Virus record (IMG/VR): IMGVR_UViG_3300017700_000562
Span: 1 to 57,100 of that record
From: a virus
Lineage: Duplodnaviria; Caudoviricetes
DNA length: 57,100 nt
Direction: 5' to 3' (one strand)
The notes under the pieces are model-generated. The model worked only from the letters and a program-made list of their open reading frames with translations. It searched no databases and was not told the origin of the DNA. Below, in pieces: positions 1 through 47,560 of the stretch (positions are counted from its first letter, which is position 1; each line of letters begins with the position of its first letter). A program made the position numbers and the translations under genes.

Positions 1-123
1 CGCAAGCAGCCGTCGTTCACCGAGGATTACCTCAAGACCGTAGCGCCCGGTCGCGACATCCTCGACATTCGCCACCTGTCGCACATGCGGGACAGTTTCA
101 TCGCGCCGCTGTTGGAAGAACAC
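1..123. repeat. Terminal direct repeat, left copy (circular-assembly overlap)
   Basis: cgcaagcagccgtcg...gttggaagaacac is identical to 56978-57100, and it lies inside the polymerase ORF. Confidence 0.97.
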
Positions 124-1011
124 ATCTGGCGCGACCGGGTACATGCCAATTTTAACCAGATGCGCGGAGACGAATATGGAACTATCACGGGCCGCCTATC
201 GTGCGATAGCCCCAACCTACAACAGGCTCATAAGCGCGACGCTGAGCGTGGCCGTATGCTGCGTGGCCTATTTATCCCCGACGAAGGAAAAATCTTCGCC
301 GAAGTTGACTATTCCCAGTGCGAACCGCGCCTGCTCGCTTACTATTCAAGGTGCAAAGTTCTGCTCGACGGATACCGGGCAACTCCGTCTGTCGACGCTC
401 ATACCGCCGTTGGTAAAGCTATCAGCTTCGGTCGATGGGACGAATCTGATCCTGATGCCAAGGGGTCGGTGAACAAGCCGCTCCGAGAAAGCGGCAAGCG
501 CGTCAATCAGACCCTGATCACCGGGGGCGGCAAGGGTGTGATCGTGGCCCGCTACGGTGTGCCGCTGGCCGAAGTCGACAAGATATGGCGCGACTATTTC
601 AAGGCGATGCCTGAAATCAAGGAACTGCAGGATAAGGCCAGCAAGCGCATGCGCAAGCGCGGCTACGTGGTGTCGCTGCTGGGGCGCAGGTCGAGATTGA
701 ATGACGACCGGTTCTACGTCGCCGTTAACCGCTTGCTCCAGTGCGGCAACGCCGACGTGATCAAGTTGAAGATGGTCGAGATCGACGATTATATGGAATC
801 GCAGGGACGTCCTCCCATCGACGTGCTGCTCAACATCCACGACGCTCTGCTATTTCAATTTGACGAGAGCGCCCGCGTGCACTATAATAGGTGCCTTGAG
901 ATCATGTGCGCGTTCGGCCCCGACGACGAGATCACGCTCGACATTCCCATCGAAGTCGACGACGGCGAGGGCGAGACGTGGGCAGAAGCGACATTCGGGC
1001 CGGAGAAATAG
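1..1011 (+). CDS. polA: Family A DNA polymerase, C-terminal polymerase domain (continues from 55868 across the junction); candidate Z-adapted polymerase
   Basis: Motifs TITGRLSCDSPNLQQ, motif A AEVDYSQCEPRLLA, motif B RESGKRVNQTLITG, NRLLQCGNADVIK and motif C NIHDALL. The frame is continuous with the exonuclease half at the window end. Confidence 0.95.
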   Translation, partial: RKQPSFTEDYLKTVAPGRDILDIRHLSHMRDSFIAPLLEEHIWRDRVHANFNQMRGDEYGTITGRLSCDSPNLQQAHKRDAERGRMLRGLFIPDEGKIFAEVDYSQCEPRLLAYYSRCKVLLDGYRATPSVDAHTAVGKAISFGRWDESDPDAKGSVNKPLRESGKRVNQTLITGGGKGVIVARYGVPLAEVDKIWRDYFKAMPEIKELQDKASKRMRKRGYVVSLLGRRSRLNDDRFYVAVNRLLQCGNADVIKLKMVEIDDYMESQGRPPIDVLLNIHDALLFQFDESARVHYNRCLEIMCAFGPDDEITLDIPIEVDDGEGETWAEATFGPEK

Positions 1012-1012
1012 G

Positions 1013-1750
1013 ATGCCGTTTGGTTATTTTGGGGCTAAACACGGGTTGGCCAAGTTCTACCCCGCACCCACCCACAACACCATAATTGAACCATTTGCGG
1101 GGTCCGCCGCGTATTCGTGTAAATGGGCCACACCCGATACTCATGTAATACTTAGGGACATCAATCCTGACGTAATAGGCTTGTGGTATCGACTACAAGG
1201 AATGTCGGTGGATGAATTGATGGCTATACCAATGCCCGTTAAGGGCGAACGGACCGTTGAACCCCTTATAGCTGCTGCCAGCGGTGAACAGGGGATGGCC
1301 GTCCTAGCGGGAAAATCTAGGCAAATCACCGATCGCATGGCCAAATCGTGGCCTAGGCTCAGGCAACGGATCGCGACTGCATTGCCTATGATAAAAAATT
1401 GGGACGTTCAGTTGGGGGACTATTCGTCTATTAAAAACACAAAGGCCACGTGGTTTGTCGACCCCCCATACACGTCCAAGGCAGGAAGTAGGTCCGACGA
1501 TGGAAGCCGCACAAAAGTGACAGAGGGCACTAAGGGGGCGGGTGGGGATAGATATAGTGAGCATGGGGTAGGTTTTAACTCGCACGACGATTTGGCCAAA
1601 TGGTGCCTGTCTCGTAAAGGGCAGTTGATAGTTTGTGAACAAATGCCCGCTGATTGGTTGCCATTCCAACCGTTCAGAACTCAACGCAATGGAGTGGGTG
1701 CGGGAATCCAGTCTACTCGCACCGAAGCTATGTACGCGAGGATTAAATGA
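1013..1750 (+). CDS. Dam-like (D12 class) amino-DNA methyltransferase
   Basis: N-terminal GYFGAK, SAM-binding motif I IIEPFAGSAA and catalytic motif IV FVDPPY. The probable start is ATG 1013, directly after the pol stop. Visibly more AT-rich than its flanks. Confidence 0.85.
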   Translation: MPFGYFGAKHGLAKFYPAPTHNTIIEPFAGSAAYSCKWATPDTHVILRDINPDVIGLWYRLQGMSVDELMAIPMPVKGERTVEPLIAAASGEQGMAVLAGKSRQITDRMAKSWPRLRQRIATALPMIKNWDVQLGDYSSIKNTKATWFVDPPYTSKAGSRSDDGSRTKVTEGTKGAGGDRYSEHGVGFNSHDDLAKWCLSRKGQLIVCEQMPADWLPFQPFRTQRNGVGAGIQSTRTEAMYARIK

Positions 1751-1932
1751 AAACCTTAGGTATTTGGTTCGATACTAATTGCAAGGAACCCCCAAAAATG
1801 AGCGATAAGGAATTTCAGGCCAAAGTGCTGCTATTTCTGGCGAAGTTGATGGCTGATCTCAAGGTGCCGGCCAACTCTACGTCGGCCATGATGTTGTTGC
1901 GCCTCATAGAAGATGCAGAGCGGGACCTGTGA
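1747..1932 (+). CDS. Small hypothetical protein
   Basis: ATGA/GTGA-type overlaps with both neighbours. Confidence 0.5.
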   Translation: MKTLGIWFDTNCKEPPKMSDKEFQAKVLLFLAKLMADLKVPANSTSAMMLLRLIEDAERDL

Positions 1933-2120
1933 TGAAGACCTTCGGTATTCTGGTTCGTTTCGCCGATCTCCCTAACGATATCGGCATGGACGACGTCAAG
2001 CGTATGGCGTCGGACATCATCATGTCGATTCCCGACGAGACGCCGTCGCCGGAACATGGCAAGTGCTTCGAGATCGGCGTCGGAAACGTGCGGCGGGTAC
2101 CGAAGGATAAGCTACAATGA
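1929..2120 (+). CDS. Small hypothetical protein
   Basis: Coupled overlaps at both ends and GC3-rich codons. Confidence 0.6.
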   Translation: MMKTFGILVRFADLPNDIGMDDVKRMASDIIMSIPDETPSPEHGKCFEIGVGNVRRVPKDKLQ

Positions 2121-2569
2121 ACGAACTCCAGATGCAAAAGCTGGTCATCGATTCCGTCATCGAAGGGGGCGGCCGGGCTATGAAGCTTCAAAACGAGTTT
2201 GTCCGAGGCGTTTCGGACCTGCTCGTCAAGATGCCGGGCGGGGTACCGTTCTTCCTTGAGGCCAAGCGCACCGACCTTGGCAAGCGCACCCTGGGTCTAT
2301 TACACCACGAATTCAAGTGGGACGTTTCACAACTCCAGAAGAATTTCCTTCGCGACTGGCACAAGGCCGGCATGAAATGCGGCGTCGTGTCGTTCGTGCA
2401 GTTGACGGGGGGCGACATTCGATCACTCCGCATGGCCATATACCCATATCTTGACTGCGTCGAGCAGGGGTGGACCGGGTCTCTGGCCGACCACGTCGAA
2501 CTGGGTGACCACGTCCAGCGAAGCATCACAATACGAACCCTTCTCAACGCATTCAAACAGGTGCCCTGA
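2117..2569 (+). CDS. VRR-NUC / PD-(D/E)xK nuclease (Holliday-junction resolvase-like)
   Basis: GVSDLLV...FFLEAKR...SQLQKNFLRDWHKAG pattern in a replication module. Confidence 0.75.
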   Translation: MNELQMQKLVIDSVIEGGGRAMKLQNEFVRGVSDLLVKMPGGVPFFLEAKRTDLGKRTLGLLHHEFKWDVSQLQKNFLRDWHKAGMKCGVVSFVQLTGGDIRSLRMAIYPYLDCVEQGWTGSLADHVELGDHVQRSITIRTLLNAFKQVP

Positions 2570-3075
2570 TGGCTAATCGACTACTTACCGCAGACCAGAT
2601 CGTGTCGTTGTTCACTCGCTCGATGGTGGGGGAGGCTTTCACCACCCACCCCGCCAGCGACGAGACCCATATCAAGATAGTTCACATGGGAACGGGCCTG
2701 TCGGAAGATTTCACGACTCAGGACCGTATTCTGTCGGATGGGGATTTCATCAAGAACCGCATCGTGCCGTTCGAAGCGCGGGTACGGTCCAGTTACAAGG
2801 CGTCGGAGCGTTACGCCCCATGTTCTTTGCTTGGCGAGCGCGGCAAGACCCATGGGGACTACGACCAGATGGCTGCCGTCATTCAGTCTATCAAGTTTGC
2901 TATGCAATCCGGCAACTGGGAGGACCTTACGGCCACCCAGAAGGAAAGTTTAGACTTGACAGCCACCAAGATCGGGCGTATAGTCTGCGGCGATCCTAAT
3001 CACCGGGATCATTGGGACGATATCATCGGTTACGCAACACTGGCGCGGGATCGAATTCCCGTAAAGAAGGGCTAG
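2569..3075 (+). CDS. DUF6378-like protein (nucleotide-metabolism associated, all-alpha)
   Basis: C-terminal ERGKTHGDY...KIGRIVCGDPNHRDHWDDIIGYATL, immediately upstream of purZ. Confidence 0.7.
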   Translation: MANRLLTADQIVSLFTRSMVGEAFTTHPASDETHIKIVHMGTGLSEDFTTQDRILSDGDFIKNRIVPFEARVRSSYKASERYAPCSLLGERGKTHGDYDQMAAVIQSIKFAMQSGNWEDLTATQKESLDLTATKIGRIVCGDPNHRDHWDDIIGYATLARDRIPVKKG

Positions 3076-3079
3076 AACT

Positions 3080-4210
3080 ATGCTTGACGGTTTCATTCAG
3101 CGCGGCAAGATGTCGTTCATTCTCGGCGGTCAATTCGGATCGGAGGGCAAGGGCGCTGCAAGTGCCTGGGCCGTCACTGAACTGGTCAAGACCGGACGGG
3201 CGTTCGATATCATCACCACGAACGCGGGTGTCCAATCTGGACATACCAGCATCCACGAGGGCAAGAAGCGCGTGCTGTTTCATCTGCCGACTGCGGCGAT
3301 GTTTTGCGACGCCCCTGTACATCTGAACGCCGGATCGATCATCGACCCGGACGTATTGTTTCGTGAATTCGACGAGAACCCGGATTTCCGCTACACTCAC
3401 CGCCTGACCATTGATCCCTTTGCCGCCGTCGTCACTCAAGAGTGCCGCGACGCCGAAATGGCGAACGACAGCGCGCAGACCAAGATCGCGTCGACCCGCA
3501 AGGGTGTCGGTCAGGCGCTGGCGCGCAAGGTGCTGCGGTCTGGCATGGTCGCCAAGGACCACCCGCGACTGCAGCCTTTCATTTTTCAATTCAGTATGAA
3601 CGATGATCTCTCCAAGGGCGCTTCTATTCTCGCCGAAGTCCCGCAGGGCGTGTCGCTGTCGCTCAACGGCGGTTTCTATCCTCATACCACGAGCCGCGAC
3701 TGCACCGTGGCGCAGGCAGCCTCCGACGCCGGCATCCACCCGCATTTCGTCGGCCAGACGATGCTGGTGCTGCGCACGTTCCCGATCAGGGTGGGGAACA
3801 TCAATCGTACCGCAGAAGAGATTCGGGAGACAATGACCGCATATGAAAGCAAAGACCCTGAACAGTATAAGGGGTATTCCGGCGGCGTCTACCCTGACCA
3901 GTATGAGATATCGTTCGACGATCTCGGCGTCGAGGCCGAAATCACCACCGTCACCAAGCGTGTGCGCCGGATTTTCACCTGGTCCGACCAGCAGGTGGTC
4001 GACGCCATTCGCGTCTCGCGACCCAGCGTGATTTTCCTGTCGTTCTGCGATTATTTGCGCGGTGATGGGCAGGCAGGACAACCTTATATCACGGACGAGT
4101 TGGTACGCAAGGTCCGTGGTTTGTGTCGCGCCGAAGGTCTCGGTAACGTCGAGGTTCTGACCGCCTTCGGCCCGACCACGGCGGACGTGCGGGTCAACGA
4201 GAGCCGCTGA
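3080..4210 (+). CDS. purZ: PurZ-family N6-succino-2-amino-deoxyadenylate synthase (adenylosuccinate synthetase paralog)
   Basis: GGQFGSEGKG has Ser in place of the PurA catalytic Asp of GDEGKG. Also SGHT, STRKGVG, QG.SL...FYPHTTSRD, RTFPIRV and TTVTKRVRR. Followed by MazG-like and HD-domain genes. Confidence 0.92.
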   Translation: MLDGFIQRGKMSFILGGQFGSEGKGAASAWAVTELVKTGRAFDIITTNAGVQSGHTSIHEGKKRVLFHLPTAAMFCDAPVHLNAGSIIDPDVLFREFDENPDFRYTHRLTIDPFAAVVTQECRDAEMANDSAQTKIASTRKGVGQALARKVLRSGMVAKDHPRLQPFIFQFSMNDDLSKGASILAEVPQGVSLSLNGGFYPHTTSRDCTVAQAASDAGIHPHFVGQTMLVLRTFPIRVGNINRTAEEIRETMTAYESKDPEQYKGYSGGVYPDQYEISFDDLGVEAEITTVTKRVRRIFTWSDQQVVDAIRVSRPSVIFLSFCDYLRGDGQAGQPYITDELVRKVRGLCRAEGLGNVEVLTAFGPTTADVRVNESR

Positions 4211-4211
4211 A

Positions 4212-4673
4212 ATGACGACAGCGGCGATAATAGGAGCTACGAACATGACTTTACCCAAGGACTTGTCAGGGCACCCAGAACACCTAGTCATGGGTGTCCG
4301 CGACGAAGTGGCTGAGTTTGCGGTGGCTATGGAAGCCAAGCTTCGCAAGAACGACCACAAGACCGGCTGGAAGGATCAGCCCATCGAGGCCCACATCAAA
4401 TTGATGCGAATCGAAATGATGGAGTTCGACGTGGCGCTGGAATTTCTCGGCGACGAGGAAGCCGCCAAGGAATGCGTCGATATCGCGAATTTCGCCCTGA
4501 TCGTGCGCGACAAGCTGCTGGCGCGGATCGCGGCGAAGAAGGAAGCGGAGCGCCGGGAAAACAACCGCGAACCCGGCACGCTGGTACAGAAAGGGTGTGA
4601 CGTCGAGGGCTGCGGTGCACCCAGCTATGCTACCAATTGTGGCCATCCCAAGTGCATGATGCCCCCTTTCTAA
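4212..4673 (+). CDS. mazZ: MazG-like all-alpha (d)NTP pyrophosphohydrolase, MazZ-type
   Basis: MEAKLRKNDHK.GW...IEMMEF...EAAKECVDIANF provides ExxE...ExxD metal ligands. Position between purZ and datZ. Confidence 0.7.
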   Translation: MTTAAIIGATNMTLPKDLSGHPEHLVMGVRDEVAEFAVAMEAKLRKNDHKTGWKDQPIEAHIKLMRIEMMEFDVALEFLGDEEAAKECVDIANFALIVRDKLLARIAAKKEAERRENNREPGTLVQKGCDVEGCGAPSYATNCGHPKCMMPPF

Positions 4674-4688
4674 AAACAGGAATTTGAA

Positions 4689-5303
4689 ATGCCATACCAG
4701 AAGCTTTTCCCGCCCGAACTTCGCACCGCGTCAATAGTCCCGCGCTGGTCCGTAGTGTGGACCCTGAACAAGGATACCGTGGCGAACCATTCATATTTCG
4801 TCACGTTCTACGCGCGGCAGATCGCCAAGCTGATCGGGTGGAAGGGCTCGTACGAGGACCTGATGTACTACGCGCTGGTGCATGATCTCGACGAGACGGT
4901 GACGGGGGACATCGTGTCGCCGGTCAAGGCGGCAATCGTAGATAAACAAGCCTCCGATGTTTACGTAGACAATCACATGAGCCGGACCATGCCGGATGTC
5001 TTGGCAAATACTGCTCGGATAATGGACCCGTTTAATGAAGACCAATCAGGGAAATTCGACGAGCCCTCCGATATCAAGCTTATCGTCAAGGCAGCCGATC
5101 GCCTCGACGCCCTGTTGTTCCTGATCACCGAGGAACGGTTGGGAAATTCGATCATTATGAAGCGCACCCCGGACGCCCAATCGTTGCTGCGTCAGGCCTG
5201 GATGGATTTGCCCGGTATCGACGAAGCTGGTAAAAAGTTTACGTACGAGGTTATGCTTGAAGAAATTTCACACCACAGGTCCGGGGGTGGTTTCGGTGTC
5301 TGA
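4689..5303 (+). CDS. datZ: HD-domain dATP triphosphohydrolase, DatZ/YfbR-like
   Basis: VPRW...TVANHSY...ALVHDLDETVTGDIVSPVK...VKAADRLDA, within the purZ cluster. Confidence 0.85.
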   Translation: MPYQKLFPPELRTASIVPRWSVVWTLNKDTVANHSYFVTFYARQIAKLIGWKGSYEDLMYYALVHDLDETVTGDIVSPVKAAIVDKQASDVYVDNHMSRTMPDVLANTARIMDPFNEDQSGKFDEPSDIKLIVKAADRLDALLFLITEERLGNSIIMKRTPDAQSLLRQAWMDLPGIDEAGKKFTYEVMLEEISHHRSGGGFGV

Positions 5304-5502
5304 AACATTGACCTTGTACGTACACTGTGCTTGCAACGACGGCTTGGCCCCCAGTGAAGCCGAGGTGGATGCCATGTTGGATAGTCTTAATTATAGGGCT
5401 GCAGCCAGACTACTTGGCAAACACGTGGCACAACGAGAATGGTTCGGTACTTTGCCGTTTTCAGACAGTCTTGGCTTTGCGATATATCGGGATTTTGAAT
5501 GA
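5296..5502 (+). CDS. Small hypothetical protein
   Basis: Fills the gap between datZ and the helicase with overlaps. The GTG start is inferred. Confidence 0.45.
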   Translation: MSETLTLYVHCACNDGLAPSEAEVDAMLDSLNYRAAARLLGKHVAQREWFGTLPFSDSLGFAIYRDFE

Positions 5503-6908
5503 CCACCGATTGGCACCTGAACCACGCCCGTTTCGGCACTAAGCCCTGGGCTGTACAAGTCGAGGCTATGCGTCGTTCTGCCCCACACAGAAAATACGCG
5601 TTATTCGCCGAGCAGGGACTTGGAAAAACTGCAATGGCTCAGAACGCCTTTATCGACGACGATGACACCGACGTCCATCTGGTGCTCTGCCCGAATTCGT
5701 TCAAGAACGACTGGGTGCTGGCCCCTGAGGAATGGGGCGTAGGTTGGATGCCTGTCGGTATGTGGCCGCGCAACCCCATCCCGACCAACGAAGAATATAT
5801 CCAGTACGCCATCAACTTCGAGTCCGCGCGCAAGAGCAAGCTGAACGACCTGCTCCGGTTATGCGAGAAGCGACGTGTCCGGCTGACTATCGACGAATCC
5901 GCGATCCTCGCCAACCCCGGCACCGAATCCACCAAGGGTATGATCGAGATCGCCAAGCGCGCCGACCGGGTCTGGCTGCTGAACGGCACGCCCCTGATCA
6001 AGAACCCTGTCGACTATTTCGGCCAGTTGCGCGCCATCGGTCGCCTAAACGGCTGGAATGCTACTAATTTCAAGAACCGGTTCGCCGTAACTGGGGGTTG
6101 GAAAGGAAAACAACTCTTAAACGAGATCAAAAACGAGACCGAGTTAGCTACCATCCTCGACGAGTGTTCGTTTCGTGCCCTCAAGGCCGACTGGCGCAAG
6201 GACCTGCCCCCCAAGGTACGGACGCCCATTCATCTTGAAATGTCAGCCAAGCAGCGGGTCCATTACGATGAAATGATGGACGAGTTCTATACCATGGTTG
6301 ACGGCGAGGAAATCACCGCGCAACTGGTGCTGACGCAGATGGACAAGCTGCGCCAGATATCATCGTGCGTCCTGATGAAGGACGGCAATGAATATTTCTT
6401 CGAGGAAGACAAGAACAACCCTAAGCTACAGGCCCTGTACGACATCGTGTCGTCCTGTCCCGGCAAGATCATCGTGGTCTACAACTACAAGGCGTCGGGC
6501 ACGCTGTTACGGGAGTCGCTGACCAAGAAGGGTCTCAAGCCCGCCTATATCAAGGGTGGGATGAAGCCCGAGGAACTGTCGCGCCAGAAGGACATGTTCA
6601 ATAACGACCCCGACTGCCGGGCCATCGTGTGTCAGGAACTGGCCTCGTGCCGGGGACATACGCTGATCGGGCAGACCGGAAAAGACAGGTGCGCCACTAT
6701 GTATTTCTACGAAAATTCCTTCTCGTACTACCAGCGCGCCCAGATGGAGGACCGCAATCATCGCGGCGAGCAGGACGAGACTTGCAACATATATGACCCG
6801 GTCGTCAGCCCGATGGATGCTCTTACAGTTGAAATTCTGACCAATAAGAAAGACATGGCGGACGGCCTCGATCAGGTGGTGGCCAAAATACGGGAATTGA
6901 GGGGTTGA
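5499..6908 (+). CDS. SNF2-like SF2 helicase
   Basis: AEQGLGKT Walker A, TIDESA Walker B, LLNGTP, KLRQISS and QMEDRNHRGEQ motif VI. Confidence 0.9.
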   Translation: MTTDWHLNHARFGTKPWAVQVEAMRRSAPHRKYALFAEQGLGKTAMAQNAFIDDDDTDVHLVLCPNSFKNDWVLAPEEWGVGWMPVGMWPRNPIPTNEEYIQYAINFESARKSKLNDLLRLCEKRRVRLTIDESAILANPGTESTKGMIEIAKRADRVWLLNGTPLIKNPVDYFGQLRAIGRLNGWNATNFKNRFAVTGGWKGKQLLNEIKNETELATILDECSFRALKADWRKDLPPKVRTPIHLEMSAKQRVHYDEMMDEFYTMVDGEEITAQLVLTQMDKLRQISSCVLMKDGNEYFFEEDKNNPKLQALYDIVSSCPGKIIVVYNYKASGTLLRESLTKKGLKPAYIKGGMKPEELSRQKDMFNNDPDCRAIVCQELASCRGHTLIGQTGKDRCATMYFYENSFSYYQRAQMEDRNHRGEQDETCNIYDPVVSPMDALTVEILTNKKDMADGLDQVVAKIRELRG

Positions 6909-6933
6909 CTTGCAAGTCTCGGTGTGATAGGAT
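6905..6933 (+). promoter_or_regulatory. Sigma70-type promoter
   Basis: TTGACT-17 nt-TAGGAT, followed by RBS caggag and ATG 6962. Confidence 0.7.
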
Positions 6934-6961
6934 ATAGGTTCGATCACGCAGGAGATAGACC

Positions 6962-7135
6962 ATGAAGACCCCTAATCCTCTTTCCTCTGTCATCATCCGG
7001 TTGCGTGAAGGTGCAGTTTCTGCTGCCACCGCGCACCTGGGCTGGGAACTTATTGTTGACGGTCTCTATGTTGGCAACTTTGCGTCCAAGGCCGATGCCG
7101 AAGCTGCCGCCATCCAGATGACCGTGGGGCTCTGA
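6962..7135 (+). CDS. Small early hypothetical protein (57 aa, MKTPNPLSS...)
   Basis: Strong RBS after the promoter, and it ends next to the start of the following ORF. Too short for the supplied ORF track. Confidence 0.65.
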   Translation: MKTPNPLSSVIIRLREGAVSAATAHLGWELIVDGLYVGNFASKADAEAAAIQMTVGL

Positions 7136-7136
7136 T

Positions 7137-7736
7137 ATGACCCTCGAAATCCCTGCCTTCCTCCGCATCCCGGCCGATGTTCGTCGCGCCGCTTGGCTCG
7201 CCAGCCCCCCGCGCCCTATGCCGAAGTTTATCCCGGTCGCCATCGCGACGGACGCGGACACTGAGGCCGCACTGGCCGAGATCGCGGAGGAAAAACGTCG
7301 CGCGAGCCTGAACCGCATCGCCAAGATGAAATCCAAGATGTCGCAGGGCAAGGTCAGCATCAAGACCCATCGTTGGAATGCGGGGCGCGGGCGGTTCGAG
7401 CCCTTGGCCGCGCCGGAATGGAAGCTGCAGCGCGGGCGAGAGGAACACGTCCGGTTCATGGAAATGTACCCGGACGCGAGGCCGCTGGAGGAAAAACCAA
7501 TGTATCATGTGGCTAAGAATTACTTGATACAGTCACAGAATACACACAAAGTCGCGCTGCCCTCTACCGGCCCTAATCTCGATCTCGTAACCAAGGACAA
7601 CGCCGAACGTGTCGCCCGTCGCAACGGCGTCTGGAAGGACAGCTACGGCACGTTGCAGGCCGGGTTGATGACCATGTCCGTCAAGAACAGGCTTAAACGG
7701 CTTGTTAAGGACGGCCATGATATCATGTGGGACTGA
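7137..7736 (+). CDS. Early hypothetical protein with C-terminal NG-W-Y-G-M-NRL family domain
   Basis: LEIPAFLR N-terminus. The C-terminus resembles the ORFs at 49948 and 51348. Possible internal start at 7500 with ggagg. Confidence 0.7.
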   Translation: MTLEIPAFLRIPADVRRAAWLASPPRPMPKFIPVAIATDADTEAALAEIAEEKRRASLNRIAKMKSKMSQGKVSIKTHRWNAGRGRFEPLAAPEWKLQRGREEHVRFMEMYPDARPLEEKPMYHVAKNYLIQSQNTHKVALPSTGPNLDLVTKDNAERVARRNGVWKDSYGTLQAGLMTMSVKNRLKRLVKDGHDIMWD

Positions 7737-7760
7737 AAAACACAAACAGGAGTTAGGAAT

Positions 7761-7853
7761 ATGTTGAGACAGATCGGTATCATGTTGATCGAGGCAGGAG
7801 GCATCGCGGTCTGCCTGTCGATCTTCATCGGATTTTGGGTGGCGACACCATGA
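7761..7853 (+). CDS. 30-aa hydrophobic membrane peptide
   Basis: aaacaggagtt RBS, then MLRQIGIMLIEAGGIAVCLSIFIGFWVATP, with an ATGA overlap into the next ORF. Confidence 0.55.
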   Translation: MLRQIGIMLIEAGGIAVCLSIFIGFWVATP

Positions 7854-7990
7854 CCACTCAGTCCCGTGCCGACAACCTCTTGCAGGCTTGGCAATTGCTT
7901 CGTCGGCAGGGCGTCCCGGCCGACGCCCGCCTCCCCATCATCGACGCGCTCTGTGAAATGGAGCGCGCTAAGCAGGATTCGAAGAAATGA
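7850..7990 (+). CDS. 46-aa hypothetical protein
   Basis: ATGA overlaps at both ends (MTTQSRADNLLQAW...). Confidence 0.55.
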   Translation: MTTQSRADNLLQAWQLLRRQGVPADARLPIIDALCEMERAKQDSKK

Positions 7991-8955
7991 GCGAACTGTC
8001 GCCCAAGGCCCTCAAGGCCATTGCCACCGTCGAAAAGCTGATGCGGCTCGCCGGCAAGAATCCCAACGAGGCCGAGGCTGCGGCGGCATCGGCCAAGGCC
8101 ATGGACCTGCTCGCCAAGTATAACCTCGACATGTCCATCGTCGAGCAGAATTCCGGCGACAAGGGCAAGCGCGAAGACGCCAAGATGGCTGGGGGTCTAT
8201 ACCATTACCAGCGGGACCTGTGGCAGGCTCTGGCCGAACTGAATTTCTGCATGTACTGGAATCAGTACCGGTATGACAAGGACAAGTCCGAGAAGCGACG
8301 ACGTCCCAGCTACACGTTTCAGCACCGGCTGGTCGGTCGCACCGTCAATGTGACGGCCACTCGCACCATGGCACAATACTTGGAGCAGACAATCGAACGC
8401 CTGACCCGTGAACGCATGGGCGGCGACGGCAAGCAATTCTTCACCCGATACGCGATCTCCTACCGCGAAGGCATCGCGGCCCGCGTCGAGGAAAAGATAT
8501 ACGAGCGCCGACGCCATCTTCTGGCCGAAGAAAGGGCCAAGGAAAAAGCTGCCGAGAAGGCGGCGCGTGCAGCCGGGCGCGAAGGCGTCAGCACGTCGAC
8601 GGCCCTTACGCTGGCCTCCCTGCGCCAGTCCGAAGAGGACGCCAACAATGACTTCCTGTATGGTGAGGGTTGGTCCGCAAAACAGCGCGCGGAAGCTTTG
8701 GCTCGCGCCGAGGCCTCGCGCATCGCGGAGGAAGAATACACCCGCTGGGCGAAGGCTAACCCCGAGGAAGCCGCCAAGGAAGCGGAGGAACTTCGCAAAC
8801 GCCAACGCGCTTATCGCCCTAGCTACGGTAGGGCCTCCTATCGCGACACCAAGCAGCGCGACGACGGCGCATATTATTCAGGCTACGACGCCGGGGCGAA
8901 CGTATCGATTGACCCGCAGGCTGATGGGCGCAAGAACGGAGGGCTGTTGAAATGA
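7987..8955 (+). CDS. DUF2786-domain protein
   Basis: N-terminal VEKLMRLAGKNPNEAEAAAASAKAMDLLAKYNL and C-terminal AYYSGYDAG. Confidence 0.8.
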   Translation: MSELSPKALKAIATVEKLMRLAGKNPNEAEAAAASAKAMDLLAKYNLDMSIVEQNSGDKGKREDAKMAGGLYHYQRDLWQALAELNFCMYWNQYRYDKDKSEKRRRPSYTFQHRLVGRTVNVTATRTMAQYLEQTIERLTRERMGGDGKQFFTRYAISYREGIAARVEEKIYERRRHLLAEERAKEKAAEKAARAAGREGVSTSTALTLASLRQSEEDANNDFLYGEGWSAKQRAEALARAEASRIAEEEYTRWAKANPEEAAKEAEELRKRQRAYRPSYGRASYRDTKQRDDGAYYSGYDAGANVSIDPQADGRKNGGLLK

Positions 8956-11448: not shown

Positions 11449-11913
11449 ATGCCCCGAGACTCAGAAAACCTTAAACGTTGGCGGGATGCTCGGTACCCCT
11501 TAGTGAAGGACGAGTTAAATCGCCAACGTAGTCAAAATCGCAAGGAAAGACGAGCTAATATGTCTTCGGAGGAAAAATCCAAGATATTAGAGACCAAACG
11601 TAACAATTACCGTCATGGGGACAAAACCTATCACGCGGCTCGTACCAAACGATACCGGGTTAAGCTTAAGATGGACGTAATCAAGGCTTATGGTGGGTGC
11701 TGCTCATGCTGTGAAGAGGACCACCCAGATTTCCTGACTGTCGACCATGTGAAAAACGATGGCAACGTCCACCGCCGCACTCTTAAAGGTACTCAAAATT
11801 TGTACCGCATGTTGCGGGACGCCGGCTACCCTAAAGATGACTACACCGTTCTTTGTTTCAATTGCAACATTGCACGCAGCCTGTTCGGCACGTGTCCACA
11901 CCAGAGGACCTGA
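11449..11913 (+). CDS. HNH-type (Cys-rich) homing endonuclease
   Basis: YGGCCSCC...LTVDHVKNDG...LCFNCN...CPH, in an AT-rich insert. Confidence 0.75.
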   Translation: MPRDSENLKRWRDARYPLVKDELNRQRSQNRKERRANMSSEEKSKILETKRNNYRHGDKTYHAARTKRYRVKLKMDVIKAYGGCCSCCEEDHPDFLTVDHVKNDGNVHRRTLKGTQNLYRMLRDAGYPKDDYTVLCFNCNIARSLFGTCPHQRT

Positions 11914-22291: not shown

Positions 22292-23125
22292 TTAATACCC
22301 CGCTAGGGGGGTGGGGCCGTTCGGACCGCCGAGAGACGACGCTCCATACCATGACCCGTCGCCCGTCGCACCGCTGCCGCCATACACGCCATTGCTGCCC
22401 ATCTGGTTAGCAAGATAAGCGCTACCAAGCGAATTGCCCAGTCCGCCGATCGCCGACCCGATGGCATTGGACGACGCGGCGCTGGCATTTCCTGCTCCAA
22501 TCAAGGCCTGAGAATTGGCATTGGCCACGTTCGACCCGACGCCCGCCAGCGCGTTGCCCGACGACGCCCCGGTGTTGATCAGGTTCTGACCCGCGCCGGC
22601 CTGCCCGCTGAACAGGTTCTGTAGAGAATTAACGACACTCTGCCATGTCTGCGACGCCAGACCGCTGGAGAACGACGCCGCCCCCTTAGCCACGGCCCCG
22701 CCCGATCCGCCGAGACCACGGGCAGCCAGCGCATTGTTGGCGGAACGCAGCCCCTGGCTGTTGGCGAACTGATACCCCGGCGTCTGTTCAAGCGTGGCCG
22801 ACTGATCGGCCCCCGGCATCAACAATTTCATGAGAGCGTTCAGGGGGCTGGAAGTGTTGTTAGGGTCGAGAAGCTGTTGCTGCGACCCGATCTGTTGCTG
22901 CCCCGCATTGATAAACGGAGACAATAAGTTCTTGTTCTGTTCGTACATCTGCTGCTGGTTAGCGATGGATTTGTCAGCAGCTTCGCGCTGGGCGTCAGCG
23001 GCATTCGAGGACCCAAACACGGACGCCCCGGCCGAAAGTGCCCCCGCGCCCAAGATCGCTGCCGCGACTGAACAGTACAGCCGGGCCTCCGGATCGAATT
23101 CTTGGAATGCTCGGCTGGTGATCAT
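22292..23125 (-). CDS. DNA transfer (pilot) protein, P22 gp7-like
   Basis: Gly/Ala/Ser/Gln-rich, with LEQTPGYQF...AARG and AADAQREAA motifs. Confidence 0.8.
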   Translation of the reverse strand: MITSRAFQEFDPEARLYCSVAAAILGAGALSAGASVFGSSNAADAQREAADKSIANQQQMYEQNKNLLSPFINAGQQQIGSQQQLLDPNNTSSPLNALMKLLMPGADQSATLEQTPGYQFANSQGLRSANNALAARGLGGSGGAVAKGAASFSSGLASQTWQSVVNSLQNLFSGQAGAGQNLINTGASSGNALAGVGSNVANANSQALIGAGNASAASSNAIGSAIGGLGNSLGSAYLANQMGSNGVYGGSGATGDGSWYGASSLGGPNGPTPLAGY

Positions 23126-23583
23126 CAGATTAAGGCCCTGATCATATATGTATCGGCGGGTTCAAACCCGAACATCGGAAGCAATCTGTCGAGACCCAGC
23201 GGATTTCCGGTCTTGTACCCGGAATACCACACTTTCACGCCCCGTCGTCGTAATTCCTGTTCGGTGTGCCGAAACAACGGGAGGACCAGACCCCGGTTCC
23301 GTTCTTCGGGAACAACGTAACATATGTCCATTGTTCCGGTCAATGTGGAACGGTAGTGAAACCCCGGCGCGACCTGTGCGATGTAATATGCCGCGATCTT
23401 GCCGTTGCGCCGGGCCGTGACCAGGAACAAAATTCCCTGCGCCTCGCGGCGCAGGTATTCGTCGTACTGGGGATCGAGCGGCATCATCCACTGTAGCAGG
23501 CCAAGTTCACGATGATGCGACACGAAGATTTCACGCAGTTCCGGTAATGCGTGTTGGTAAGATTCGACCTGGAGTGTAATCAT
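23125..23583 (-). CDS. GNAT-family acetyltransferase
   Basis: ICYVVPEERNRG acetyl-CoA motif A and a C-terminal FGFEP. Confidence 0.8.
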   Translation of the reverse strand: MITLQVESYQHALPELREIFVSHHRELGLLQWMMPLDPQYDEYLRREAQGILFLVTARRNGKIAAYYIAQVAPGFHYRSTLTGTMDICYVVPEERNRGLVLPLFRHTEQELRRRGVKVWYSGYKTGNPLGLDRLLPMFGFEPADTYMIRALI

Positions 23584-24107
23584 ACGTCGATCCTTACGTC
23601 GACGAGCATGTGAATTCGATCATCTGCCGAATTGTTCACGACGGAGTGCTCCGCCGCCGCGTCGAACCAGAATAGTTGACCCGTAAGCATCTGAACTGTC
23701 TCGTCGCCGCACGTAAACAGCGAACCGGGCAGACCCTGCAAAACGATATGATACCGGGTGTAATATTCCGCGTACTTGCCGAGAGTGTCCTTGTGTGGAA
23801 GGATTTTCTTGCCGGGCTCGGTCTTGGTGATGACCACCCGGCCCAGCCGCGAACCGTTAACCAGCTTCAAAATGTCGAGGGCCATCTGCTTGGCCCCCAG
23901 CAGCGCCATCGCCGGGGTATCTACGGCCTCCAGGTCGTCGCCGTCCGGACTGCCGAACCGCAGCAAGATGTCGTGGACGTCGGCGTGCGGCGTGCCTTCG
24001 AACGAAGTTCTGGTGTCGTCCGCGTCCCACAGTTCGTGGTGGCGCATCAAGGAATTCATGATCGGCTGCGTATTGATGCCCGCAGTAAGCATGTAAAAAT
24101 AGCGCAT
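23580..24107 (-). CDS. Aspartyl/asparaginyl beta-hydroxylase-like 2OG-Fe(II) dioxygenase
   Basis: PGKKILPHKD, RYHIVL, WFD...EHSVVN and DRIHMLVD (HxD...H triad). Confidence 0.85.
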   Translation of the reverse strand: MRYFYMLTAGINTQPIMNSLMRHHELWDADDTRTSFEGTPHADVHDILLRFGSPDGDDLEAVDTPAMALLGAKQMALDILKLVNGSRLGRVVITKTEPGKKILPHKDTLGKYAEYYTRYHIVLQGLPGSLFTCGDETVQMLTGQLFWFDAAAEHSVVNNSADDRIHMLVDVRIDV

Positions 24108-37781: not shown

Positions 37782-39131
37782 TTAACGCATCCATCCTAGT
37801 TGCTGGTTTTCACCGTGATAGCCATGGTCTTCTTCGTGTTCTTCGGCGCGGAAGTCTTCAACTTCTTCCAGCATCCAGGTCGCATAAGACCCGAACGAAT
37901 CGGCGTCATGGCTGCTGTCGTCGTGGACCGGGGTATTGGTGCGCTGGCGCGTCTGCGCGTTGATGCCGTAACGATAGCGGGGTAACGATGACAGCAAATT
38001 CGGGCAACCCTTCTCGCTGATGTAGATGCGAGGAAACAGGGTGCGGCACGCATTGATGCGGATCGATATGTTGGAAATAGCCGACTTCTCGCATCGGACC
38101 ACGCCCTCGGTCGGATAGGCAGCCAGCGTCTGCTTGAACGGCGTCGCCGTGATGTTCATCTTGTCCTGCCGGGCGTCGTGCGGCAACCAGATGCCGCCGA
38201 TCTGAAACCCGGTATCCTGAATATGCTTCAAGTAGTGTGGCCAGTCGTGGCCCACGTTAGAATAATGATAGATCGCGTGGTGCTGCATTCCGATCTGTTG
38301 CCAGAATGTCAGCGACGTCATGTCGCGCTTGCCAAGGTCGACCGTCACGATGACGGGCTTGCCCTTGATGTGGCCAATGTTCGGTGAAATCCGACCCTCG
38401 GCGATGGCGGCGTCGAGTTCACGATAGTAAATCGATCCCTTGACGGTGCGCCGGACCTTGCCACCCCAGATCGTTCGCGCGCTGTCCGGGTCCTTGGCAT
38501 ACATGTCGACCATCTGTCGACGCAGGATTTCAGGAAACCACGGGTTGTCCTCGTGGTTACACTCGATGACTACCGTGCCCTCCGGCGGGTCGAGAACCCA
38601 GTGCTGGTAAGTGTAGCTGGTGGCCAGTTCAGGGTTAAAGTCGATCCAGACTTCGGACCCTTGCCCGAAAGGACCGAAAGGAGGATCGCGACGGATCGTA
38701 GGAATGAGGACTTCCCATGTCGCCTCCGGAATCGGTTCTGCCTCTGTGACCCAACAAACATCGATAGCCTCCATCGACTTGATGTTCAGGATGTTGTTAC
38801 GCAGACCTTCGAACACGAACCTGGTGCGATGACCATTACCATCCGGGGCACCGCGAATCTCGTTGTCGAGCACATCATAGTAGCCGTCGTAGCCCATCAT
38901 CCTGATCTGGTCGGACAGCAGCTTGTGTACGGATTCCTTGATCGATTTCTGGATGTCGCGGGCACACAGGTTGAACAACTTGCGGTTCATCCCCAGCGTC
39001 AGCAGTGCCCGCGCGTAGTCCCACGACTTGGCCCCACCGCGTCCGCCATACGACACCTTGTAGGGCGCAGGTTTGAACAGCGGTATCGCCTTCTCGGTAA
39101 ACTGGACGCGGGGTTTGACGAGGGCGTTCAT
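37782..39131 (-). CDS. terL: Terminase large subunit (PBSX/Sf6-like, headful type)
   Basis: YGGRGGAKS Walker A, WVTEAE Walker B, DFNP, DNPWF, VDLG and HDDSSHDADSF. The true start is MNALVKP at 39131. Confidence 0.93.
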   Translation of the reverse strand: MNALVKPRVQFTEKAIPLFKPAPYKVSYGGRGGAKSWDYARALLTLGMNRKLFNLCARDIQKSIKESVHKLLSDQIRMMGYDGYYDVLDNEIRGAPDGNGHRTRFVFEGLRNNILNIKSMEAIDVCWVTEAEPIPEATWEVLIPTIRRDPPFGPFGQGSEVWIDFNPELATSYTYQHWVLDPPEGTVVIECNHEDNPWFPEILRRQMVDMYAKDPDSARTIWGGKVRRTVKGSIYYRELDAAIAEGRISPNIGHIKGKPVIVTVDLGKRDMTSLTFWQQIGMQHHAIYHYSNVGHDWPHYLKHIQDTGFQIGGIWLPHDARQDKMNITATPFKQTLAAYPTEGVVRCEKSAISNISIRINACRTLFPRIYISEKGCPNLLSSLPRYRYGINAQTRQRTNTPVHDDSSHDADSFGSYATWMLEEVEDFRAEEHEEDHGYHGENQQLGWMR

Positions 39132-39604
39132 TACTGCGTGACCGAAGCCTTGATGAACCCGGTAATGACGCCGGTTGTCTTGGTGAAGCAGTTGGCACCG
39201 GACGACAGCACGGCAGTAATTCCGGTTGAATAGGCTGACGCCGGACCGGGGTTGAAACTGAGGGTGGCGTTGCCGTTCGCCGGCAGGGCCACACAGTCCA
39301 GCGGCGTAACTACCCCATCGGCTGGAACAGTGGTTGAATTGAGAATGAGCAAGAACCCGGCCGTCGCCGTGGCATTCGCTGCGTACACGTTGTAAAGCTG
39401 GCCGGGGGCGGCGAGCAGAACGCGCGAAAATTCGGCGCTGGGCGACGCGACGGACGGGATCGCCTGCACGCAATTGTAAATCGGAGCGCCACCCTGCACG
39501 CGGTACGACAGCCAGCACTGAGACTGGGTAACCTGCGCGTTGACGAGGGTCGGGGCGAGAGCGCTGAACACCAGCGCCAGTAACATCGGGATCAGGCGCT
39601 TCAT
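39131..39604 (-). CDS. Sec-signal exported beta-rich protein (4 Cys)
   Basis: MKRLIPMLLALVFSALAPTLVNA-Q, with a GGAG RBS. Its stop overlaps the terL start. Confidence 0.8.
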   Translation of the reverse strand: MKRLIPMLLALVFSALAPTLVNAQVTQSQCWLSYRVQGGAPIYNCVQAIPSVASPSAEFSRVLLAAPGQLYNVYAANATATAGFLLILNSTTVPADGVVTPLDCVALPANGNATLSFNPGPASAYSTGITAVLSSGANCFTKTTGVITGFIKASVTQ

Positions 39605-39627
39605 GTTCTGGTCTCCAGTTGATTGAT

Positions 39628-39664
39628 GAAAAGAAGCCCCCGATGTACCAGAACACCGGGGGCT
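39628..39664 (-). terminator. Rho-independent terminator
   Basis: agcccccg...cgggggct stem followed on the minus strand by tcttttc. Confidence 0.6.
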
Positions 39665-39714
39665 AAGTCTAGGGAGGAAACGCCCAGTCGGGCCTCGTAC
39701 GGCGACGTGCCGAA

Positions 39715-42652: not shown

Positions 42653-42855
42653 CTGATACCCAGGACCCTGACTTCGCTGTCGAGCCCGACCCTCGCACTG
42701 GTCCTTTCCTCGCCGAGTACAAGATGGTCGAACACCAGATCATCGAAGTCCTGATGACCAAGATCAACGAGCAAGCCAAGATGGGCTGGCGACTGGTCCA
42801 GGTCATCTACAACCCCGATCGCAAGATTGCATTCATGGAAAGGCTGACTCGCTGA
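42649..42855 (+). CDS. Small DUF4177-like protein
   Basis: EYKMV...KINEQAKMGWRLVQV. Confidence 0.55.
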   Translation: MTDTQDPDFAVEPDPRTGPFLAEYKMVEHQIIEVLMTKINEQAKMGWRLVQVIYNPDRKIAFMERLTR

Positions 42856-43337
42856 TGCCCATGCCCCCCATAATCAGCAAAAAAGCAGCTAGGGCTCAGG
42901 GCTTAAAGCGATATTATACTGGTGTTCCGTGTAAGCACGGTCACACCGCAGATCGTAGGGTATCCGATAGTGGGTGCCTTGGGTGTAAAAATCAACGGGA
43001 GCGCGACAGGCGAAAAAAGTCCGAACATCAGTCCAAGGAATTACAACGTAATCAGTTATACAGAACCCAGTTACGACACGATGTCTTATCCAATTATGGG
43101 GGCAAGTGTGCCTGTCCAGGGTGCGATATAGCTGAACCCCGGTTCCTTGGCATCGACCATATCGAGGGGGGAGGTCGAAAACATCGTAAAGAAATAGGTA
43201 GCGGCCCCGGACTTTATGTTTGGTTAAGGAATAACGACTACCCCAAAGACAAATTTCGTCTTCTGTGCCACAACTGTAACCACTCGTACGGCCATTATGG
43301 CTTCTGCGCACATGGGGTCTCCAATGGCAAAGTCTAG
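42855..43337 (+). CDS. HNH-type homing endonuclease
   Basis: GLKRYYTGVPCKHGH Zn-finger-like N-terminus, then YGGKCAC...IDHIEGGG...LCHNCN. Confidence 0.75.
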   Translation: MPMPPIISKKAARAQGLKRYYTGVPCKHGHTADRRVSDSGCLGCKNQRERDRRKKSEHQSKELQRNQLYRTQLRHDVLSNYGGKCACPGCDIAEPRFLGIDHIEGGGRKHRKEIGSGPGLYVWLRNNDYPKDKFRLLCHNCNHSYGHYGFCAHGVSNGKV

Positions 43338-46402: not shown

Positions 46403-46640
46403 CTGTCGTCTTCGCTCCCCCGTTCACCGTTGCTGGCAGTATCTGTCCGGCACTAGCATGTTGGAATGGCCGATGTGGGTCGTCAGCCGCACTCGCTACA
46501 CCGCGAACGGTCTAGTGGTCGACCGCAGCACCGGGGCGCAAGTCGTGGGATATGGCGACTGGCTGGTCCACGATCTGGACAAGACCGACTTGCTATGGTA
46601 TGATGAAAAAACCTTCAAGAAGGAAATGGAGCTTATATGA
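46395..46640 (+). CDS. Hypothetical protein
   Basis: AAGGAGG RBS and GDWLV...FKKEME. Confidence 0.6.
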   Translation: MPNCRLRSPVHRCWQYLSGTSMLEWPMWVVSRTRYTANGLVVDRSTGAQVVGYGDWLVHDLDKTDLLWYDEKTFKKEMELI

Positions 46641-47164
46641 CGCCCAGGATCAAGGTTATCTGGACCGATGAACTTATCACCATGCTGCGCAGGCTCCATT
46701 CCGAGGGACTGTCGGGCTCTCAAATCGCCTCCATGATACCTGGGGCCACCCGCAACGCCATCATTGGCAAGATACACCGGCTGGGCCTAACCCAGTCCGA
46801 CGTGTCTGGTCACAGACGCAAGACCTCCAAGTCATTCAGACCCCCGCGTCCCTCAGGCAACAGGGGCGGATTCGGGGCCTTCAACATCCAGAAGCCCCTT
46901 ACTTCCATTCCGTTCGTCGCGCCCGTTATTAACCCGCTCGACCCTGACAAGATTTGTCATTATGACGACCTAGGCCCTGGCCGGTGTAACTGGCCGGTGG
47001 ACGTCGAGGGTCGGACCAACATGTACTGCGGCGGCGACGTCGACCCCGACAAGTTCCGAGCCGTATACTGCAAGGTCCACGGGTTCAAGGCTACCAACCG
47101 CCGCAACGACCCTATCAGCAAGCAAATCAAGCCGGGCAACATGACGCGGGGATTGGGGCGTTAA
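46637..47164 (+). CDS. gcrA: GcrA cell-cycle regulator homolog
   Basis: WTDELITMLRRLHSEGLSGSQIA...TRNAIIGKIHRLGL, and C-terminal CNWP...YCG...YCKVH. Confidence 0.92.
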   Translation: MTPRIKVIWTDELITMLRRLHSEGLSGSQIASMIPGATRNAIIGKIHRLGLTQSDVSGHRRKTSKSFRPPRPSGNRGGFGAFNIQKPLTSIPFVAPVINPLDPDKICHYDDLGPGRCNWPVDVEGRTNMYCGGDVDPDKFRAVYCKVHGFKATNRRNDPISKQIKPGNMTRGLGR

Positions 47165-47560
47165 ATGCTTCTGGTTCCTGACCCCTTCGACCCTCGTTTC
47201 CTCGATTTTGGGGACCAGCACGAGTATAAGATTTATGGGGACGACCATGCCCTTACCTTCGCCCGAGTTGATCAAATTGATTATCAATGGGCAGTTCGGT
47301 GGCGTTGGAACGTTACTTTCGACAAGCACGGAAAGAAGCCCTACTTTCGCATAACGGTGTCTGAGACCGGCCGACCTGACTATACCGTCTACCTTCACGT
47401 GGAAATTCAGAAGCGAAAAGGCGAACCCCAGCCACCTCACCATACGATATCGGACCATCTTAACGGAGATAGTTCCGACTGCCGAAGATTCAATCTTGGT
47501 TGGGCTACTCCGTCGATGAATCGCCGCAACATCTTTGGACAGGGATACATGAAGCTATGA
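47165..47560 (+). CDS. HNH endonuclease (HNH_3-like)
   Basis: YLHVEI...SDHLNGDSSDCRRFNLGWATPSMNRRN. Confidence 0.8.
   Translation: MLLVPDPFDPRFLDFGDQHEYKIYGDDHALTFARVDQIDYQWAVRWRWNVTFDKHGKKPYFRITVSETGRPDYTVYLHVEIQKRKGEPQPPHHTISDHLNGDSSDCRRFNLGWATPSMNRRNIFGQGYMKL

Follow-up and report, generated by a model that had tools for sequence, protein, structure and literature searches.

The viral record IMGVR_UViG_3300017700_000562, analysed here over its whole length of 57,100 bp (hereafter, the window), carries an orphan DNA amino-methyltransferase gene of the Dam fold inside a gene cluster predicted to replace adenine by 2-aminoadenine (Z). The methyltransferase is real and intact, and its distinctive feature is the place where its gene sits: as a preliminary description of this DNA had reported, it lies between the polymerase gene and the purZ cluster, directly after the family-A DNA polymerase gene (polA) and 1.3 kb before purZ, which is followed by a MazZ-like gene and datZ (Table 1). 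The ATG start codon is found 1 nt past the polA stop codon (TAG, 1009-1011), and the TGA stop codon shares the tetranucleotide ATGA with the start codon of the following open reading frame (ORF). Because all 13 closest homologues open with MPFGYFGAKH, the ATG at 1013 is taken as the true start. This position in the operon argues for expression of the enzyme together with the synthesis of Z-DNA. A promoter-like site near the end of polA may add separate transcription of the methyltransferase gene; such sites number four in positions 1..7200, as against a mean of 4.3 after shuffling, so that they are not in excess. The record has a GC content of 57.4%, a completeness rating of 100% and a 123-bp terminal repeat, and polA spans its ends; the plus strand carries the replication genes and the minus strand a podovirus-like structural set.

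Table 1. Features of the methyltransferase gene, of the surrounding Z cluster and of the GcrA gene in the window
Feature	Position	Strand	Remarks
Family-A DNA polymerase (PolA), C-terminal part	1..1011	+	PF00476 E 1.8e-47; phrog_17 E 1.2e-54
Sigma-70-like promoter match, TTGACG-17-TATAAT (11/12)	860..888	+	Inside the end of polA, 125 nt 5' of the methyltransferase start
Ribosome-binding-like GGAG	1002..1005	+	7 nt 5' of the ATG; read from the sequence
Alpha-class (D12, Dam-fold) amino-methyltransferase	1013..1750	+	245 aa; orphan, no cognate nuclease
F-x-Y-x-G-x-K motif, residues 3-9	1019..1039	+	N-terminal; F3, Y5, G7 and K9 nearly invariant
Motif I, EPFAGSA, residues 26-32	1088..1108	+	S-adenosylmethionine (AdoMet)-binding loop; aligned to EPFVGAG of E. 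coli Dam
Motif IV, DPPY, residues 150-153	1460..1471	+	Catalytic loop; codons GAC CCC CCA TAC
Post-DPPY loop, residues 154-180	1472..1552	+	Predicted local distance difference test score (pLDDT) 55-74; only weak part of the model
61-aa ORF	1747..1932	+	Overlaps the methyltransferase stop (ATGA); GC 0.478; no family match
63-aa ORF	1929..2120	+	Overlaps the stop of the previous ORF; genome-typical GC content at third codon positions (GC3); no family match
Endonuclease-like protein, 150 aa	2117..2569	+	phrog_93 E 3.8e-8; 21/80 purZ loci
DUF6378 protein	2569..3075	+	phrog_17775 E 2.8e-19; PF19905 E 3.9e-5, below cut-off; 26/80 purZ loci
PurZ (2-aminoadenylosuccinate synthetase)	3080..4210	+	phrog_1211 E 4e-55; GGQFGSEGKG, Ser for Asp13
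MazZ-like nucleoside triphosphate pyrophosphohydrolase candidate	4212..4673	+	No Pfam match
DatZ-like HD dATP triphosphohydrolase	4689..5303	+	phrog_7076 E 1.9e-16; PF12917 E 6.5e-17
SNF2-type helicase	5499..6908	+	Closes the conserved module; 65/80 purZ loci
GcrA homologue	46637..47164	+	PF07750 E 1e-20

The reading frame contains no internal stop codon, keeps all the invariant columns of a 68-sequence family alignment and gives a confident AlphaFold2 model from that alignment (mean pLDDT 88.7, predicted template modelling score 0.88), which bears out the earlier impression of an intact gene. The invariant columns comprise E26, P27, G30 and A32 in motif I and D150, P152 and Y153 in DPPY, and the N-terminal motif may correspond to the "WAGGK" motif of Dam. 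The order of elements is that of class D12, with a helical segment (residues 52-127) between motif I and DPPY, and the model has the two-domain Dam fold; its one weak loop holds an insertion of approximately 11 residues that is missing from the 12 closest homologues. The protein matches Pfam PF02086 (MethyltransfD12; 39.7 bits against a cut-off of 22, E 6e-10, aligned over residues 19-75 only) and phrog_56, "DNA methyltransferase" (E 1.1e-12), and it falls below the cut-off of the Dam subfamily model TIGR00571 (24.8 bits against 114.85). Fold, motifs and conservation argue for an AdoMet-dependent amino-methyltransferase active on DNA. The stretch between motifs I and IV, described earlier as short, measures 124 residues (E26-D150), which is 24 fewer than the 148 of E. 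coli Dam (E33-D181) and approximately 23 fewer than the 147 of M.CbeI from Caldicellulosiruptor bescii. The gene is also more AT-rich than its surroundings, as had been noticed: its GC content is 0.515 and its GC3 is 0.533, compared with 0.545-0.595 and 0.68-0.74 in seven large neighbours (PolA, nuclease, DUF6378, PurZ, MazZ-like gene, DatZ and SNF2). Its family counts 1055 proteins at E<=1e-3 in a word-indexed search and 1413 clusters at 50% identity in an exhaustive one; the closest homologues in the word-indexed search are 59-62% identical and all metagenomic.

Replacement of adenine by Z in the DNA of this phage is predicted on the firm grounds of its PurZ, MazZ-like and DatZ genes. The window PurZ has Ser where PurA has its catalytic Asp13, and a DatZ homologue and a candidate for the MazZ-type pyrophosphohydrolase adjoin purZ; the candidate is 29% identical (E 1e-11) to gp33 of Ochrobactrum phage vB_OspP_OH, which occupies the same position and is annotated "nucleoside triphosphate pyrophosphohydrolase". 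The same phage has the cultured PurZ nearest to that of the window (38.9% identity). The Ser substitution is recorded in 147 of the 147 phage PurZ sequences covered by a 2026 survey (PMC12884076), and the triad of PurZ, MazZ and DatZ suffices for the A-to-Z replacement in bacterial DNA, as the title of one study states (Czernecki et al., 2021; PMC8342488). The order PolA, nuclease, DUF6378, PurZ, MazZ, DatZ, SNF2 forms a conserved module. A tblastn search of 80 related purZ loci, taken from viral contigs as the best of 245 relatives, finds PolA in 65, DatZ in 60 and SNF2 in 65; the window shares its order of PolA, PurZ, MazZ-like gene and DatZ with 60-65 of these 80 metagenomic loci as well as with phage OH. 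The DUF6378 protein stands directly 5' of purZ in many Z phages (the copy of phage OH is annotated "phosphofructokinase") and could belong to the Z cluster as a hitherto undescribed component. A megablast search of window positions 1-6000 against cultured phages gave no match.

The methyltransferase is an accessory cargo of this module, and phage OH has the same gene order without it. The neighbours provide no restriction-modification pairing, consisting of two small ORFs without a family match, the first of which is probably part of the same insert as the methyltransferase, and the endonuclease-like gene. The latter is conserved at this place in related purZ phages without the methyltransferase, and none of the 21 loci containing it has a tblastn match to the window enzyme. 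Among 50 records around the window PurZ clade, PF02086 is matched in three (G006, G023 and G048; 1/21 of those at least 90% complete), the family profile A1 in one (G048), PF01555 in two (G023 and G045) and PF00145 in two (G002 and G030). PF02086 is absent from 50 records of a second PurZ clade, and PF02086, PF01555 and PF00145 are all absent from five of five cultured Z phages. A local search with hidden Markov models of 160 purZ loci with 10-kb flanks matched only L215 (that is, G051), L160, L121 and L091. The gap behind PolA varies in content, being occupied by endonuclease VII (L083), ThyX (L085 and L122) or an IS1595 transposase together with a split methyltransferase (L091). It holds, up to PurZ, 190 ORFs of at least 70 aa, of which 69 (approximately 110 aa or more) were scanned against Pfam, with the ORFs of L091 scanned separately; endonuclease VII, ThyX, DUF6378, DUF5664 and prim-pol proteins were found among the 69, and no further methyltransferase.

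The closest relatives whose gene context can be read nevertheless lie in Z clusters. When the 13 closest homologues were used in a narrower scan, one viral contig came up (L178, record G051; 30,127 bp, 63% complete, 64% GC), whose enzyme is 55% identical to that of the window; the next locus reaches 42%. The genes of G051 run in the order PD-(D/E)XK nuclease, AAA_24 protein, 163-aa ORF, PrimPol, PolA, 135-aa ORF, PurZ (GGQYGSEAKG), 137-aa ORF, 286-aa protein with a C-terminal dUTPase domain and methyltransferase, the last of which stands 1.4 kb from this PurZ0-type cluster. A DmtZ-DutZ arrangement, in which a dUTPase is fused behind an N-terminal domain beside purZ, is reported for PurZ0 phages in the survey cited above (PMC12884076), and its presence together with the 64% GC marks G051 as a Z phage of a different kind from the window. 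In a FastTree phylogeny of 167 family rows, computed without bootstrap, the window and G051 proteins fall in one clade of 16 (Shimodaira-Hasegawa-like support 96), as its two members with readable gene context. L003 and L002, both from records without purZ, belong to the sister clades. A single metagenome match of 2064 bp (L082) encodes the C-terminus of PolA, PurZ (GAQLGSEGKG) and then, 2 nt past the purZ stop codon, MPFGYFGAKHGLARF; this start of a methyltransferase comprises 15 residues, too short for placement in the clade. Single-protein scans of viral contigs for close relatives of the window PurZ and of the L082 PurZ found none. Since the closest relatives with readable context are embedded in Z clusters, a Z-linked role is favoured. 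The preliminary description had counted against such a role an enzyme that acts only on ordinary A-DNA and is sporadic among relatives: the enzyme is indeed sporadic among purZ phages, and the placement of its closest relatives points the other way. The gene is thus rare among Z phages, and yet its own clade and several analogues appear to be tied to Z clusters. One further candidate, G107 (complete, 120.8 kb), which has a 40%-identical enzyme, was rejected as a Z phage, as its PF00709 gene has the PurA-type signature GDEGKG; this adenylosuccinate synthetase gene with the Asp signature (L375 1207-2346) lies 33 kb from the methyltransferase-family gene.

The analogues are other, non-orthologous amino-methyltransferases beside purZ. 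G048 (L160) has the order PolA, PurZ, DUF5664/DUF550, 238-aa D12 enzyme with DPPY and HD hydrolase, and its enzyme is 20% identical to that of the window. An enzyme of the same type is found in G006 (L091), a complete 56-kb record with terminal repeats whose PurZ is 51% identical to that of the window, directly after PolA and hence at the same site as the window methyltransferase. The intervening transposase of G006 (L091 7194-8234) belongs to the IS1595 family (PF12762 E 3e-33, zinc ribbon), which is unusual in a lytic-looking phage. In G023 (161 kb), the gene of a Ser-type PurZ is preceded at 1.2 kb by that of a Dam-like enzyme of full length (PF02086 E 2e-53). Between the two lies a DUF6996/DUF6997 protein (L121 8794-9540), beside a ribonucleotide reductase and a radical-SAM gene, and no DatZ or MazZ homologue is seen within 10 kb; for a Z cluster, this composition in a large phage would be unusual. 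In G045, an N6_N4 enzyme follows purZ at approximately 1.2 kb. In total, six of the seven amino-methyltransferases in Z-phage records stand within 1.5 kb of purZ (the 2-kb fragment L082 being left out). The probability of this proximity is 5e-6 under a uniform-position null (5e-5 without the window) and 0.013 under a null in which the gene may lie anywhere in a 15-kb replication module. The G048/G006-type subfamily is represented in 228 cultured-phage records, and no PF00709 gene (PurA/PurZ) is present in the three carriers tested (Vibrio phage F27, Curtobacterium phage Sooty and Vibrio phage 1.119.O), so that Z phages have, on more than one occasion, taken up enzymes of this kind from phages at large.

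These distributions raise the question of whether the gene has a selected role at all. It could be a recent passenger, either active or decaying, at a variable insertion site. Its atypical GC3 resembles that of the HNH endonuclease genes of the phage, the site behind PolA varies among relatives and holds an insertion sequence-disrupted copy in G006, and the gene is found in none of the 80 related purZ loci. A passenger without a role is nonetheless quite unlikely, because the gene shows no stop, frameshift or lost motif, keeps its invariant residues and gives a confident model, is translationally coupled to its neighbours, and belongs to a clade that has been kept at the Z cluster of a distant phage at 55% identity. 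Four genes of the HNH or endonuclease VII type in the window (11449-11913, 42855-43337, 47165-47560 and 50697-51746) have low GC3, as has the methyltransferase, which suggests several mobile insertions in this genome.

A role outside Z-DNA has also to be weighed. The enzyme could be an ordinary N6-adenine methyltransferase that cannot use Z and acts on host A-DNA or on residual adenine of the phage, for example in manipulating host replication or transcription or in marking host DNA. Its Dam fold and DPPY motif agree with this, as does the wider family, 115 of whose 116 viral loci are in phages without purZ; purZ occurs within 10 kb in one of these loci (the top-ranked one, G051) and in none of 80 in a smaller set. 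The family is widespread among bacteria as well: GTDB genomes from many phyla contain 200 relatives, none of them more than 39% identical to the window enzyme. In cultured phages, tblastn finds the methyltransferase in four records only, at no more than 33% identity, and none is named as a listed PurZ phage. The phage moreover has a GcrA homologue. Cellular homologues of GcrA read N6-methyladenine, and the preliminary description had therefore suggested a link between the two genes. This link finds no comparative support, as their distributions across records do not coincide: GcrA is found in 7 of the 50 purZ records, including the five closest by PurZ (G001-G005), none of which has a D12 enzyme, and G051 has the methyltransferase and, at 63% completeness, no GcrA. 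GcrA appears to be a trait of its record group and the methyltransferase a later addition. Besides the lack of co-occurrence with GcrA, the DatZ homologue predicts removal of dATP and hence little residual adenine, and a role on host DNA only would leave the repeated placement of such genes in Z clusters unexplained. A target confined to adenine is accordingly judged somewhat unlikely.

The host in question is probably an alphaproteobacterium, to which the GcrA homologue, a match to an alphaproteobacterial small RNA (sRNA) family and the closeness of PurZ to that of an Ochrobactrum phage all point. The sRNA match (Rfam RF00519, suhB/mmgR) lies at 39622..39700 on the minus strand (52.2 bits, gathering score 41) and overlaps the beginning of the gene for the large terminase (37782..39656, minus strand). 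The phage may here carry a copy of a regulatory sRNA of its host, and the match hints at the host. The only public sequencing run with the sequence of the record is a freshwater metagenome, and no RNA run is listed. Among the structural genes are an Asp/Asn beta-hydroxylase-like cupin (PF05118, E 2e-14; 23580-24107, minus strand) and a GNAT acetyltransferase (23125-23583, minus strand).

Comparison with solved structures brings in a different chemistry. M.CbeI (PDB 7M6B) resembles the window enzyme in its DPPY motif and Dam-like architecture and is its best match by both profile and fold. The two differ in setting: the window enzyme belongs, as an orphan, to the replication operon of a phage, and M.CbeI, according to the titles of the papers concerned, was described in connection with a bacterial restriction barrier. 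The window enzyme might likewise be an alpha-class N4-cytosine methyltransferase, shielding C-containing sites of the genome that the A-to-Z replacement cannot protect. What strengthens this option is that the closest solved structure belongs to an alpha-class N4-cytosine enzyme with DPPY. However, the identity to M.CbeI is only 17%, the fold scores for M.CbeI (17.7) and Dam (17.0) are tied, and such a shield would be of equal use to ordinary phages, leaving the Z-cluster position of the closest relative unexplained. To our knowledge, nearly all characterised D12-class enzymes are N6-adenine enzymes. M.CbeI itself is termed "unique" in the title of its report (PMC3425538). A cytosine target is, on balance, unlikely.

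Among the four targets proposed earlier (Z, residual adenine, cytosine N4 and host DNA), the context of the relatives thus favours Z, and cytosine N4 has gained from M.CbeI. The reading that we prefer, with a probability of roughly 40%, is that the enzyme methylates the N6 position of 2-aminoadenine in the DNA of the phage itself. While the accessory status, the operon position and the clade-level link to Z clusters are direct observations, as are the gene, its motifs and its fold, it is from these that we infer an activity, a target base, a recognition sequence and a benefit. The gene would have arrived by horizontal transfer and come to lie directly after polA, within an operon that makes and polymerises dZTP, so that the enzyme would be produced during replication of the phage DNA. 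It would bind AdoMet through motif I, recognise a short sequence with its shortened helical domain, flip out the target base there, and use DPPY to transfer the methyl group to the exocyclic amino group. The product would be N6-methyl-2,6-diaminopurine at specific sites of the Z-DNA, and the benefit would be added protection at sites where Z alone fails against host nucleases. It is also conceivable, as a more tentative proposal, that a whole Dam-fold clade has specialised on Z-DNA, travels with the Z clusters of PurZ and PurZ0, the two deep lineages of aminoadenine phages, and makes N6-methyl-2,6-diaminopurine in vivo.

The supposed need for such protection finds some support in the composition of these genomes. 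Extreme, phage-specific avoidance of 6-bp palindromes, A/T-containing ones included, is seen in the window, G001, G002, G003, G005 and G051. In the window, CTCGAG occurs 0 times against 13.5 expected and AGATCT once against 14; elsewhere, AGGCCT occurs 0 times against 26 in G005, which has no CCWGG at all, GAATTC twice against 11.7 in G002, and GCCGGC 0 times against 33.7 in G003. Selection against A-containing restriction sites thus apparently persists despite the Z replacement: palindromes with A or T are still strongly avoided in the window and in related Z phages, which suggests that restriction pressure is not lifted by Z on its own. No palindrome separates the carriers (window and G051) from four non-carrier records with a close PurZ, the pattern being specific to each phage, and GATC occurs in the genome about as often as expected (302 times against 297).

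Several observations weigh against methylation of Z. Since M.CbeI combines DPPY and the Dam fold with an N4-cytosine target, motif and fold do not fix an adenine-type chemistry, and by profile M.CbeI is the nearest solved relative (E 3.5e-6, against approximately 2e-3 for Dam). The methyltransferase appears dispensable, as neither it nor its two small downstream ORFs are found by tblastn in any of the 80 related purZ loci, and D12 methyltransferases occur in 3 of 100 metagenomic purZ records and in 0 of 5 cultured Z phages. In G006, the enzyme has been split into an N-terminal piece (6312-6584) and a C-terminal piece (8238-8831), both approximately 40% identical to the G048 enzyme, with the transposase (7194-8234) in between. 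Methyltransferases are in any case commonly located in replication modules. The link of the clade to Z is carried by one full-length relative and one 15-residue fragment, and among the clade-specific residues (G4, G11, C36, Q93, A96, G158, V228, G229 and G231), none is tied to the base pocket. Finally, the recurrence of general phage enzymes beside purZ indicates that Z phages borrow enzymes that evolved on A-DNA.

Phages with Z genomes are usually described as evading restriction through the base replacement itself. The Z gene sets described so far consist of PurZ, MazZ, DatZ and DpoZ (S-2L and phiVC8) or of PurZ0, DutZ and DmtZ (Arthrobacter and Gordonia phages), and, unlike the window, none of them has a methyltransferase among its members. 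The alpha-class D12 enzymes that methylate N6 of adenine in GATC (E. coli Dam, phage T4 Dam and DpnM) are only 13-16% identical to the window enzyme, whose gene, unlike theirs, lies in a genome for which an absence of adenine is predicted. The words methyltransferase, methylase and methylat- are absent from the main text of the 2026 survey (PMC12884076), and the combination of Z with N6-methyladenine is mentioned in PMC13128860 only as a future analytical challenge. A literature search, which covered neither subscription-only papers nor supplements, found no phage-encoded methyltransferase in a Z-genome phage and no natural methylated Z; N6-methyl-2,6-diaminopurine was not found as a natural base, and the one pertinent passage was a paragraph in the discussion of Czernecki et al. 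(PMC8342488). Because the model Z phages carry no methyltransferase of the three tested families (0/5), there has been no obvious system for studying natural methylation of Z. The window, the G051 contig and three other purZ phages now provide concrete candidate enzymes inside a Z-DNA operon, for which methylated 2-aminoadenine is a plausible product. If the enzyme acts on cytosine or on host DNA only, it would reveal what the Z replacement leaves unprotected. If it acts on Z, a base that is already non-canonical would receive a further modification, which would bear on restriction evasion, on the sequencing-based detection of Z and on synthetic ZTGC systems.
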